From Octopus vulgaris (lineage: Eukaryota), in NCBI GenBank assembly GCA_951406725.2, contig OX597814.1, positions 67,084,001 to 67,148,000 on the forward strand: a stretch of 64,000 nt of DNA. Direction: 5' to 3'. The notes below the pieces were generated by a model. The model did no database searches and was not told the DNA's origin. It saw only the letters and a list, made by a program, of their open reading frames with translations. A program made the position numbers and the translations under genes. Shown here one piece after another: positions 23,955-55,173 of this stretch. Each line of letters begins with the position of its first letter. The first letter of the stretch is position 1.

Positions 23955-24056
23955 ACAGGAGTGACAATAACTTCAAAGTTTTGACCTTCTAGCCTTTGTC
24001 AGACTGTGATGAAGGCAAGCAGGCTAAAACTTCAGTCAATGTTACTCTCTTCTTGT
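23955..24056. ncRNA. Decayed back-to-back hammerhead-like inverted pair
   Basis: Minus strand CTGACAA-AGGC..GTC-AAAAC..GTT; plus strand GTGATGA-AGGC..GCT-AAAAC-ttca-GTC; most departures from CUGANGA/GAAAC fit CpG decay. Confidence 0.45.
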
Positions 24057-27000
24057 CAAAATATAATATATACATATATATGTGTAAGTGTGTATGTGTT
24101 TGTCTCTCCTTGTCTTGACATCACATGATCGCTGCAAATGAATGTCATTCAATTTCTATATTCTGTGAAAGCTTGTCTGGCCATGGTATCAGGAAGTAAC
24201 TGGCCATAAAAAAGACTGTCTTAATAAACTCCATCCAGCCTATGGAAAAGTGTAGTTAAAATGTATGCTTAGCAACCAGATTTAGTTCCACTTTGCAACA
24301 CCCATGAACACGTGTTTTCTATGATAGCTCCAAGTTGCCCAAAGCCTTGTGAGTGGATTTGATAGACAGAAACTGAAAGGAACCCAATCGTGTGTGTGTG
24401 TGTGTGTGTGTGCTAATGTGCATGTGTATGTATCTATTTGTCTTCCCATCACCATCATAGAAGTTGTGCATGGATTTGATAGATAGAAATTGAAAGAACC
24501 CCCATTGTGTGTGTGTGTGTGTGTGTGTGTGCACGCGCACGTGTTTATGGGTCTACTTATCTTCCTGTCACCATCATAAAAGTTGTGTCATTCATTTGTT
24601 CTTCACTAAAAATATTTCTAGTCATGCTGTTTGTGTAAAGCTAAGGGGGAAATATTACTTTGCTTAAAAGCAGATGAGGGCTGGTTACAAGGAGAGTTTG
24701 ATTTAGATGAATTTCATCAAAATCATGGAAACATCAGAAACCAGAATCAGTTGTCAAACTTATGATTTAAGTTGTTCCAAACATTTTGCCTGGCACAATT
24801 CATTTTGAACCACTTTATCCACTGTCTTTCTTGGCTAAAACGGTAATTTGATTTAGGGGACATTTGGCTGCTATCTCTAGCATATTAAGCTTACATGAAG
24901 TAATTCCCATTGATTCACGTCTATTAATTTGTTGCACAAAAAATAGGATATCTTGATTTTTTTTTTTAATGTCGTTTTTTAAACTGCTTAAATTAAACAT
25001 AAGTGAAATCATATATATATAAAGTCAATTCTTTAACACCCACTTTTCTGTGATTGCAAGATATAAATGAAATAAATGAGGTAAAAACTTATTGTTTGAA
25101 ATTTACGTTAGGTGAATGCATTTTTCTCCAAGTTTGCGGTAACTTGTTTAAATTTTGTTTTTATATTTAAAATAAAATAACAGTGCTCAAAGCAATATCA
25201 GGCCTCACAAGACTGGGTTGCAGGTTAATAGTTGACAGAAAACACAGGAAAAAAGATGTAATGAGAGAATCCAAGGAGCCAAGAAAATGCAACAGATATA
25301 GTGAGAGAAGAAGAGGCTAAAAGAGGTATGTTTAGATGGGTGCTGTATATAATTAGTCAATTAAGAAAAGTAGAGACAAAGGGAGGAGACAAAGAGGTTA
25401 GTACAACTTATACACCAAAATTATCTATTCATAATTGTCTTTATTCACAAAAGAATTGAAACAGTTCCAAACCAAACAAAATTGTAAATACTATGAGAGG
25501 TTTCTTTTCAGAGCCTCATCTTATAGATATTTCATCAACTGAAAACTACTTCTTTCAGAAGTTACTACATACTTAGATCAAAATACTGATTACATAAAGT
25601 AATCATGTATGCATAAAGTAGCAAGGCTGGCATGAAAGTGTATTCTGAAAAAGTGTCAATGAACACCAATAAGCATTCAGATCATAACTATTTTATGTAA
25701 ATTGCAACCAAAAAAACAAAAAAAAAATTTTTTTATGGATTTTAATACTGTCTTCTTGACAAGTTTAATCATTCCAAGTTGATAAACTTTGTTTTAAAAG
25801 AAACCAGCTAATTATTAACAGTACAGAGTTTGTTGTATTTTGCACCCATCTAAGAGTTTGTTGTATTATACCTGTCTTTAGGCATTTTAGTAAATAAACT
25901 TGTTTGAACTGAAATCCATTAGTTATGATTTTAAAGCAGTACCTTTGGGATAGGTACAAAATCACATTTGCAGGGAGTTGAAATAAGTGATAATGTTTAT
26001 GCTACCCTTAAAAACAATTTGTAGCATAGATGAAATAGTTTTAACTGTGAATCTAAACCATGTCACAAACTAGTTGGAGCTTAACATGTGCTCAACAGAT
26101 CACAAGATTTCAACATACTTATACAAATTTCATTTTATGAGGCCCACTCACAGTATAAGGACAAATCCAAATGGTTTTTTTTCAAACTTACTTTATAAAA
26201 CGTCATATTGAGAAAATTATTTAGGTCCTTGATTAACATGAGATTAAACACATTAGCTTTTTTTATTTTTATTAAATCTATTATTTCACATCAATAATTT
26301 ATAAACAATGGCATTATTTCTATTACAAAAAATATTGAAGGAAAGAATGTAAGAGAAAGAAATGAACCATTTTATTTGTAAGACTGAATAAAAAATCAAA
26401 AGTGCCATCTCACTACCACACATATGTGTTTACCACGTACATTTGAGAACATAAACTGTCCCACCTTTCGATATTACATTCCATTCTTATAGAATGATTC
26501 CCATTTCCTTTTGAGTTAGGTAGTATTTTACAGAAAAGAAAATAAGCAGCATATCTTTTGAAAGAAGCAATTAAAATTTATATATATATATATATATATA
26601 TATATATGATTCATGCTGTTGAGAGCCATAACCAAAAAATCTCATTACCAAACAAAAAGTTGTTAGAATTTAATACATGACAAAGGTTTAGTAATTTACT
26701 TTAGAAAAAAATCAAAAATGCAAATGATTCTTATTTTTAATACTGACATCTTTTGGCTTGGCATAAGGCCAATTTTTGTGAAGAATAGCATGGTCAACTA
26801 AACTGATTGTAATATACCACCAGTTCTGTTGAATCAATCCTGGTGGACAATTTAGACATAACTGAATAACCTTGTCCAGTGTAGTACAATCAGTTGAAAA
26901 AAAAAAAGAACTGAAGTCATTTTAAAAAATTATTTCAAGGTCTACATTTTACAATTCCTTTTCTCTGTAACTTTGTAATCAATTTCTCTGAAATTCATGA

Positions 27001-27909
27001 GAAACATTAAATATATGAAGCTTGTTTCCCTAGAATCAGTAGGGATCAACACAAACTGATGAGCATGTGTGCATTGGTTTAAAATACAGAATACATAGTC
27101 TTTATTCTTTCAACATATCTGTCAATTATCTGCTACCAATCAGTCTTTTCTGATAATAGAAACAGGATTCAGAGATCAATGATTCTGAATGGGTTAGAGA
27201 TAGATGATCAAGAACCCTATGATAGCAAAAATTACTTCTCATCAAATCCAGCTGATTTTTTTTATTAATTTATTCTTTCGTTTTACTTTCTTTTTTTTTT
27301 AATTATTTCTTGCGCACACACCCACAAGTCTATCACACAAGCATGAAATGATGGACAAAGATGACCGATATTTACTTGTGGATTTCAAGGTGACAACAGC
27401 AACCAATGTTACTGAAAAAACAAATGAAAACCTTTTTAGTTCAACAACTGTTAAAATAAAAAAATGTTTAAAATAATATTGAATCTGAAATATGAGTTAG
27501 TAGAGTTAGAAGGAACAAAAGCAACAGAAAGCTGAATTGAAAAAAATAAAGGAAGAAAACAGAAAAGAAAAGAAAACAACAACTGTCAGGCCATGGAAGA
27601 AAGAAATGCAAACAAGGATACAGACTCAACAAAAGCAAGTAAGTAGAGAGAAGAGGAATGAAAATATAAACCTTCAGAGAAAAGTAAACCCACCACCCTT
27701 AAATATACAAACTGAACTGAAACAGGTGATGATAACAATTTAGTTCACTGACAAGCAAGCACAAATTTTTAAACAACAAAACATTCTTTCTAAAAAGAGG
27801 GGTTATGTACAATTTCAGTCTTCTTTGGTTCATTACTGTATTTTCCATTACCAATACATATAAGAATTTTCACCCAGTATAAAAATTATCACCCATTTAC
27901 AATACATAC

Positions 27910-53362: not shown

Positions 53363-53432
53363 AAGAATCTTCCATGCATTAACATGTACCTCCTTGCAAC
53401 AATGTAAACTTTCATTTAATCGAGATATCCTT

Positions 53433-53737
53433 GGCCTGAAGAGTAGTCTGCGGTATACACCTTGCTTGGATATTTACTACTTCTGAGGTTCCGCTCGCTA
53501 TGAAATATATGCAGCGGCAAGCTGGCAGAATCGTTAGCACACTGAGTGAAATGTTTAGTGGTATTTCATCTGCCGTTATGCTCCGAGTTCAAATTCCGTT
53601 GAGGTCGACTTCACCTTTCATGGTTGATTAAAAAGTACCAGTTAAGCACTGGGGTCGATGTAATCAACTTAATCGCTTTGTTTGTCCCCTCTATATTTAG
53701 CCCCCTGTGGGCAATGAAGAAATAAATATATGTAGCC
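53433..53737 (+). ncRNA. Plus-strand hammerhead copy split by a SINE
   Basis: ggc-CTGAAGA(53436-53442)-GTAG...CTAT-GAAAT-ATAT-G|SINE|TA-gcc. Confidence 0.65.
53512..53723 (+). mobile_element. tRNA-derived SINE with 9-bp target-site duplication
   Basis: GGCAAGCTGGCAGAATCGTTAGC...GAGTTCAAATTCC; AAATATATG at 53503-53511 and 53724-53732. Confidence 0.88.
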
Positions 53738-55173
53738 CAGATCTTATCTACTACATTCCGTAACTCTTGTATTCTTATTTGCACACCCAGCAACCCTGGT
53801 CGCCTGCTGTGGAATATAAAAATCAGCTTATTGTACTCCGATATAAAAAAAAATCCACATCTTTCCATCTCAATAAACCACTATTGTCCTTGCAAGTTGT
53901 TTTTTATATTTACTACAGATTACTTAAAGTTAACTTTGTTCTTACAACACAATAGCTGGATCTTACATTTATATATATATATATATATATAATTTATAAA
54001 AATTAATTATTTTTTAATAATTAATTGATTCGACCCCCATTTTCTCATAACAATATATATATATATATATATAGATAGATATAATAATAATAATAATAAT
54101 AATATATACTGTTGTATACTTCAGACAACATATAAACACAACCAGAAATATGGATTTAATATTTTTCTACTATAACTAAATTCTCATGGATACAATGTTT
54201 CTTCAATTTTCACACCATAAAATATATCATAAAATATCAACAGTTCATGGAAAAAAAATGTAAAGGAACACTGACATTAACATGGGTAGCCTGTCAAGAT
54301 TGTCAAAAGACAAGAATTTGGAAGATAGACAACAAGAACATACCTAACTGAAAACTTGTTTTATCCTGTATGATTCATTCACACACACACACATCATTAG
54401 TAACTTTCATTATTCACCATTTTTATTCCCTCCTAGCTGCTTAGTTTAGTTTTCATTAACCTTTTATTGAATACATTTAGACCATGTTTACATAAACATG
54501 AAATAGTAGAAAAACAGCAAGATAGACAAACAAAAACCTCCATAAAACCTATTTATGTTACTAAAGCGATTAACATAAACCAAATTTACTATAATCACCA
54601 AATACAGCTTCTCATATATATATATATATATATATATATATATATATATATATATATATGAGTCTGTGAAGGCCATAAAAGATCACGCGGATCAAAATAC
54701 CTTGGAATATATAACAGCATTTGAACATTTAAAAAAATCAATTTAAATATTTTAAAACAAAAAAATATTCTGCTAGGAATGAATATGAAATTGCTTGTTA
54801 TATTTCAACATGCTGTGGTACAAAATGATCATACAAAATAAGCTGAACTAAAGTTAACATTTAAAATAACAAATGTAAATTTGAGACAAATAAGGGCTTG
54901 ACATTATTGTGAATTTAAAATACTATCCGTGTCTAGAATTTAGAATATAAATAAGCAATTCAATAGGTTCTGTTTAATCAAAGTGTAATATTGCAAAACG
55001 AAATTACCATGAACTTTCAAGAATGTGTATAATGAATTTTGATATTTTGTATATTTTGTTTGAACTGGGAGGAACCTGTTCTTTGGATTTTCAGTGTAAA
55101 CGCTGACCTCATCACAGAACCAAAGCTTCCACTCACTAATTCAGACAGCATGGTACTTCAGTACCATTTAAAA

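Follow-up and report, generated by a model that had tools for sequence, protein, structure and literature searches.

An inverted 5′-truncated copy, a one-sided tail and a (TA)n target are described as standard features of Penelope-like elements (PLEs) in PMC8557442, which names the formation of tandem and inverted structures as unexplained. Self-priming on an antisense template has been proposed for rotifer Penelope elements (PMC3846280), and a purified PLE protein from anole, predicted to be a dimer, nicks and extends both target strands, beginning at two neighbouring RNA sites that delimit the tail (PMC11167929). The main text of that paper draws no link between both-strand extension from two start sites in vitro and inverted repeats; the word 'inverted' appears there once, in connection with an oligo. 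Here we analyze a 64,000-nucleotide (nt) stretch of the Octopus vulgaris genome (contig OX597814.1, positions 67,084,001 to 67,148,000; hereafter the window), in which an original prediction had placed recurrent back-to-back hammerhead ribozymes within inverted repeats, or foldbacks.

Four head-to-head inverted repeats are present in the window: A at 23938-24067 (arms 72% alike), B at 31093-31433 (arms 98% alike), C at 53247-53772 and D at 43386-43972. The sites come from different dispersed repeat families, each corresponding to the 3′ end of its own. We interpret the foldbacks as doubly truncated PLE insertions, likely formed by priming on both strands of a (TA)n target and joining of the unfinished complementary DNAs (cDNAs), an explanation to which, as a whole, we assign a probability of about three in four. 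Their identity as individually different, doubly 5′-truncated head-to-head insertions of PLE ends is very likely. The insertion units of endonuclease-positive (EN+) PLEs likewise combine a head-to-head truncated copy, a tail at one end, partial tandems, microsatellite targets and a hammerhead in the pseudo-long terminal repeat (pLTR) (PMC8557442, PMC3846280).

Junctions, arms and tails

Family searches of the host genome (2.8 Gb, AT-rich at 33% GC, with many (TA)n arrays) returned 2426 first-look candidates for B, 2065 for C, 229 for D and 40 plus 361 for A. The family counts given here rest on the best 40 candidates scored per search (for B, for example, 40 of 2426), and the first 27 B loci were chosen for their likeness to the copy in the window. 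After removal of nine duplicate loci, 54 of 61 distinct B loci were head to head, as were 21 of 29 C loci, and 25 of the 30 B copies picked by their tail had an inverted partner. The ends of the B arms range from within the tail to 2977 nt upstream, in a continuum that extends up to full open reading frames (ORFs). Among the head-to-head B loci, a tail was present on one side in 53, on both sides in none and on neither in one. When insertions were picked without the tail in the query, exactly one tail was found in 45 of 46 two-armed loci and two tails in none (P = 7e-13 if the ends chose independently); left out of this set were two long copies of which one end was not visible and eight that lacked a partner. 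The tail end adjoins (TA)≥4 in 29 of 30 B copies, compared with 66 of 3199 bins across the window; of the tail-less B ends, 23 of 25 lie within 8 nt of one AT-rich position. Microhomology of at least 2 nt occurs at 9 of 16 insertion-free junctions, compared with 17% for random joins.

The original prediction viewed the foldbacks as minimal non-autonomous double-ribozyme retroelements, moving as a unit with the help of a PLE such as that at 31795-35770. Its premise, that hammerheads of PLE pLTRs lie in inverted truncated repeats at (TA)n, stands, with coding parents no more than likely for families A and D. In favour of the unit, there are many short foldbacks, certain junction positions are hit repeatedly, and hammerhead-bearing non-autonomous PLE derivatives, the tandem retrozymes, are known (bioRxiv 10.64898/2026.07.22.740005). 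The unit itself does not withstand the junction data. A non-autonomous foldback unit resembling a miniature inverted-repeat transposable element would appear as many copies with one junction and both ends, a pattern not found in the sampled A, B and C copies; the prediction had named uniqueness of every inverted junction as evidence against it, and unique junctions are what the sampled copies display. No identical oriented breakpoint pair exists among 53 orientable B insertions, the junctions of the head-to-head C loci differ in 21 of 21 cases (L061 doubtful), arm lengths form a continuum, and only 7 of the 30 tail-picked B copies hold two cores. The breakpoints of the window's B copy are seen again in L007, but there the other arm carries the tail and the subfamily is different, which points to a microhomology hot spot at this junction. 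Same-side and opposite-side arm distances are equal in 37 B copies, and origin of a junction shared within family A from one master is unlikely (P 3e-5 to 1e-3). In run X15, five different arm-to-arm joints are present in short-read contigs at a depth of 32-50 each, against a summed arm depth of 1e5-1e6 (which is not a copy number), so the head-to-head structure is no product of assembly and no joint is amplified in that run. We give the propagated unit very little credence. Across the runs, two distinct from the window have arm-to-arm joints in their short-read contigs, which speaks against assembly error; the window's own junction is bridged by no listed contig. Independent insertion of the two arms at one (TA)n, or subsequent rearrangement, would accord with younger B insertions that adjoin older relatives (L015, L167 and L264; also L269), but junctions are devoid of (TA)n, orientation is always head-to-head, both arms belong to one subfamily and 45 of 46 insertions have a single tail, leaving this group of explanations scarcely tenable.

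Snap-back self-priming of one strand at a palindrome, by which the inverted arm would be copied from the first, is consistent with palindromic or snap-back junctions at L002, L009, L023, L026, L027 and L031 and with the hot spot in family A. It also agrees with the likeness of paired arms, which in 37 B copies show a median of 2 differences per 100 nt within a copy against 7 between copies (closer within the copy in 36 of 37), but a single source locus for both arms predicts the same. A self-primed copy cannot extend beyond the first strand, yet in 24 of 53 B insertions it is the arm without a tail that is longer (tail arm longer in 26, equal in 3). Some arm pairs have no sequence in common, namely L039 (a tail-only arm and a 3-kb arm), L147 and L150 in B and L059 and L063 in C, contradicting self-priming as the sole route. 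A hairpin would also fix the loop letter relative to the tail, and both letters occur in A, where the tail-oriented centre of the symmetric junction is T in 8 loci, A in 4, G in 1 and C in 1 (one match without a left tail was dropped); in B, symmetric junctions are centred on C in L009 and on G in L026. Mixed centres are expected under two-ended priming, because two cDNA ends can anneal over a central mismatch. The one-tail rule, the greater length of either arm, the non-overlapping arms and the mixed centres thus disfavour self-priming of one strand, which we hold to be unlikely as the source of the inverted arm, and favour priming on both strands.

Priming on both strands at two fixed RNA start sites, followed by joining of the cDNA ends, is the probable route, in keeping with the behaviour of the purified anole PLE (PMC11167929). 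A protein with reverse transcriptase (RT) and GIY-YIG domains, probably a dimer, would nick both strands of (TA)n. One 3′ end would prime at a distal RNA start site, yielding an arm with its tail, and the other at a proximal site ~150 nt upstream, yielding the tail-less arm; both start sites would be AT-rich patches able to pair briefly with the primer. The two cDNAs, which may stem from two RNAs or from two units of one tandem transcript, would terminate early at independent points, and their 3′ ends would anneal via a few bases or short templated patches, to be filled in by repair or by the RT. Head-to-head geometry places antisense (cDNA) strands at both 3′ ends of the target, and the rule of distal and proximal starts would account at once for the inverted pLTR, the tail on one side and the palindromes at the junctions. 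As the proximal start site is no more than ~130 nt from the hammerhead, short insertions take on the look of back-to-back ribozymes. We lean slightly towards the more specific proposal, with thousands of short insertions as its record, that one complex primes both strands, at distal and proximal RNA sites 100-230 nt apart, and splices the cDNAs, replacing antisense-template self-priming. Foldback products are predicted to be dead ends, because they stop at the start sites and their read-through RNA would fold as a long hairpin that hides the ribozyme.

Several observations count against this interpretation. The best 40 candidates scored per search are skewed to young copies, so that a rare propagated subfamily could escape. 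Seven of the 61 B loci have no detected inverted partner, in eight pairs of B loci both breakpoints agree to within 4 nt, and 14 of 57 family-A loci share a symmetric junction at a quasi-palindrome before CUGA. Tail sequence is present on both arms of the A copy L199. Microhomology was scorable for 39 of 54 junctions, of which 23 were scored as insertions, many inflated by subfamily divergence, and snap-back patches at the L002, L023, L027 and L031 junctions indicate that local self-priming occurs. The coding parent of family A is represented by one weak endonuclease match (L239, independent E-value [iE] 0.019), and none was found in the expected place for family D among 20 loci walked upstream. 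The mechanism is drawn from genomic patterns, and the start site used by a PLE in vitro is not homologous to the target (PMC11167929), at odds with the primer pairing suggested here.

Stalling of the distal cDNA at the proximal start site was considered and rejected, since only 5 of the 25 tail arms stop no more than 50 nt from that site, matching the 20% expected from ordinary truncation. The L156 junction holds an inverted 12-nt copy of target flank, and at the L006 junction a 16-nt segment of the element is present several times over; the two have the appearance of templated patches left by end joining. One arm-to-arm joint (31147-31379) is found in both X15 and X16 with an identical insert of 18 letters; these runs carry two organism codes within one study, and the joint is either a shared old insertion or sample carry-over.

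Sites, families and coding parents

The features of the four sites and of a neighbouring fifth family, E, are as follows.

23860..24062, both strands: site A, old head-to-head family-A insertion, hammerhead cores of both arms decayed
~23860-23950, minus strand: ~90-nt tail of the site A left arm; the right arm (plus) is tail-less
30900..30948: (TA)n array forming the left half of the target at site B
30950..31092, minus strand: site B tail, 133 nt plus A-run
31093..31308, minus strand: site B tail-bearing arm, 5′-truncated ~205 nt upstream of the pLTR end
31148..31230, minus strand: site B intact type I hammerhead motif, sole strict-descriptor match in the window
31304..31433, plus strand: site B tail-less arm, cut within the ribozyme core
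31429..31601: (TA)n array forming the right half of the target at site B
31795..35770, plus strand: family E, decayed 5′-truncated PLE with RT end, N-rich linker, CxCX5C, GIY-YIG remnant and 3′ untranslated region (UTR)
43235..43474, minus strand: site D left arm, decayed hammerhead and downstream family sequence
43470..43972, plus strand: right arm of site D, ~500 nt from the family 3′ UTR that stop within stem II, without a complete ribozyme
53247..53368, minus strand: site C tail-less arm, intact core, short stem I, weakened stem II
53365..53962, plus strand: site C tail-bearing arm, tail at ~53773-53962, then (TA)n

Inverted minus and plus copies had been predicted at all four sites and are present there, with no ORF inside any of them, as had also been claimed. 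The families are unrelated at the DNA level (best cross-family blastn match 16 nt, E 0.02), and the proximity of (TA)n holds, with arrays at most 15 nt from 6 of 8 outer ends, compared with 7.8% of random points. The extents required correction: the inserts are longer than first given because one arm has a tail (B to 30950, C to ~53962, A to ~23860), and the supposed spacers (3-80 bp at A, B and C) do not exist, the intervals (58-81 nt in B and C, ~420 nt in D) being upstream element sequence of the longer arm. The arms of A join at a stem I/CUGA quasi-palindrome near 24001-24010 and those of B overlap by 5 nt (31304-31308). In the plus arm of C, a common interspersed repeat interrupts the sequence at ~53512-53730, and a short duplication rich in TA flanks it. 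An exact 196-bp direct duplication from inside the old element D (43528-43723 and 45247-45442, 100% identical, 1.7 kb apart) is either a recent local copy or an assembly feature.

Five further foldbacks in the window (2071-2245, 21308-22284, 28841-29357, 42105-42501 and 44132-44250) are longer or better preserved than A and D. No CUGANGA..GAAA core was found in them (for 21308-22284, the arms were scanned), so foldbacks in the window are not hammerhead-specific.

The parent of family B is a 3.5-kb element whose copies include pLTR, tail, 52 nt, ATG, RT and a GIY-YIG domain at the C terminus, with open stretches of 800 or more amino acids and profile matches to RT (iE 1e-91) and endonuclease (iE 1e-20). 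Full copies comprise, in order, an inverted pLTR, a partial direct pLTR, the tail, 52 nt, ATG, ORF, 3′ UTR, hammerhead and tail. The sequence of the site B tail sits between pLTR and ORF start in full-length copies, and this order shows the tail to be where the following unit of a tandem template begins. A single ORF with PLE-type RT and GIY-YIG, linked to the repeat, places family B among EN+ PLEs, as do the pLTR with its hammerhead, the partial tandems, the inverted 5′-truncated copy and the one-sided tail. Neither the parent ORF nor the window fragments matched an RT or GIY-YIG family in Pfam, so the family was named from its motifs, from unnamed homologues (one with a weak GIY-YIG match) and from PMC8557442. 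The nearest named homologues of the protein are from octopods; they bear the NCBI names 'myb-like' or 'GATA zinc finger' protein and are likely misannotated PLE ORFs.

In family C, a broken endonuclease remnant lies upstream on the sense strand in L101 and L062 (iE 3e-6 to 2e-5), with no RT seen there. Families A and D fit EN+ PLEs in their anatomy of hammerhead, tail and head-to-head arms. Endonuclease matches in L187, L072, L080 and L263 were rejected as parents on account of wrong place or orientation, and a 2.87-kb tandem in L101 was rejected as a tandem PLE because it is a local duplication of mixed repeats. L269 contains a different PLE-like ORF of 588 amino acids.

The helper role assigned to 31795-35770 was rejected as well. 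This element belongs to a decayed fifth family with no DNA similarity to A-D, matching them or their loci only via simple repeats, and its N-terminus is missing. Family E carries its own decayed hammerhead near 35541-35662 and forms its own foldbacks elsewhere in the genome. Asparagine-rich in-frame linkers occur in both family B (L039 2170-2900, L265, L271) and family E (window 32100-32960), and resemble the N-rich inserts of rotifer Penelope elements (PMC3846280). At 31602-31790 lies a common repeat with a hammerhead-like stretch whose core begins with U instead of C; copies flank L012, L068 and L106, and the repeat is possibly the end of another PLE family. Elsewhere in the window, two RT fragments (418-1167 and 57591-58278) that are 81-85% alike are presumably LINE-like, and a short ORF at 5249-5539 appears, in our estimation, to resemble the end of a mariner transposase.

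Hammerhead motifs

A ribozyme motif had been predicted on each arm, and this holds for two of the eight, where the core is intact and uninterrupted: the left arms of B and C. The left arm of B is the only one to pass the strict type I descriptor, with one match in the window, compared with 2 matches in 30 block-wise dinucleotide shuffles and 0 when stem II is required to have at least 5 base pairs. Its motif has a stem I of 5 bp, the core, a long stem II, a 2-bp stem III with a near-palindromic loop, and a GUU site. The left arm of C retains its core with a stem I of just 3 bp. The other six arms are degraded, cut or split: the right arm of C has a core divided by a ~219-bp repeat inserted before the cleavage site, that of B starts inside the core and lacks CUG, both A arms and the left arm of D have core substitutions, mainly at CpG-like positions, and the right arm of D lacks both CUGA and GAAA. 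An Rfam scan of the window gave 104 matches at E≤10, none of them a hammerhead. The type I core (CUGANGA/GAAA/NUH) is also present in family copies of C, D and E. In 36 B arms, 93.9% of alignment cells are paired and 21 double changes are seen compared with 8.4 in shuffled data, but pairs with a double change number 5 against 3.6 (64 of 500 shuffles); the arms are related and were chosen by core pattern, so this covariation is modest and is no independent evidence.

Competition between self-cleavage and double-stranded RNA formation had also been proposed. Such a contest would be one-sided, because the antisense arm is transcribed first in both directions. For the B foldback RNA, the computed free energy is -233 kcal/mol unconstrained and -134 kcal/mol with the hammerhead forced, a cost of 99 kcal/mol, compared with 2.3 kcal/mol for a B arm alone; on these grounds, cleavage within the foldback is predicted to be negligible. 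PLE hammerheads are reported to cleave poorly as monomers (PMC4209133), and their cleavage may need protein (PMC11167929). Contigs of two presumed-RNA runs contain family pieces and are uninformative on this locus.

Relation to described elements

Taken as objects, the foldbacks are unremarkable debris of PLEs, and annotation should treat them that way. The head-to-head structure was already known, and what this analysis adds is tails of 90-230 nt and statistics favouring two-ended priming. The one-tail rule (45/46), the non-overlapping arms and the mixed palindrome centres bring together an open question, a self-priming proposal and in vitro data, and these genomic patterns yield a sharp test for the existing in vitro PLE system. 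A two-ended model for PLEs was not found in a literature search that covered open-access main texts, and may be in print in closed-access papers or supplements; the supplements of PMC8557442, also outside that coverage, could already list octopod Hydra families or long tails. A search on octopus PLE hammerheads and on PLE hairpin small interfering RNA returned nothing specific.

The tails of EN+ PLEs in PMC8557442 and PMC3846280 measure 30-40 bp, whereas those described here reach ~90-100 nt in A (by eye), 150 nt in B and 190-230 nt in C, and both arms are usually too short to retain the ORF. Judged by its motifs, family B appears Hydra-like. It shares with the Hydra clade (PMC8557442) a C-terminal GIY-YIG without CCHH, DKT, CxxC and CxH near the C end, a canonical hammerhead and (TA)n targets, and family E has the CxCX5C linker. 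Hydra elements have RWK and CxCX5C and are <3 kb, whereas B has RWL and an Asn-rich linker without CxCX5C and is ~3.5 kb; because of RWL for RWK and the missing CxCX5C, we call it Hydra-like rather than Hydra. The homologues recovered include no named reference element of the clade.

Minimal hammerheads of Schistosoma PLEs occur as opposite-strand pairs 100-700 bp apart, read as truncated PLEs, and share with the octopus copies a short stem I, a long stem II and a tiny palindromic stem III (PMC4209133). Stem II is much longer here (~50-60 nt), and parents and junctions have been mapped. Non-LTR retrozymes resemble the foldbacks in being non-coding, in their type I hammerhead and in their origin from PLE pLTRs, but they are direct tandem repeats with two same-strand ribozymes, whereas the foldbacks are inverted, arise in a single event and mostly hold at most one intact core (bioRxiv 10.64898/2026.07.22.740005). 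No tandem array of direct units with same-strand hammerheads is present at the four window sites.

In LINE-1 twin priming, the second target strand primes a second cDNA, and the resulting inversion is joined by microhomology. The mechanism proposed here would differ in having an invariant second start site and in the usual sequence overlap of its two cDNAs, so that an inverted duplication results, whereas twin priming yields an inversion in which nothing is duplicated.

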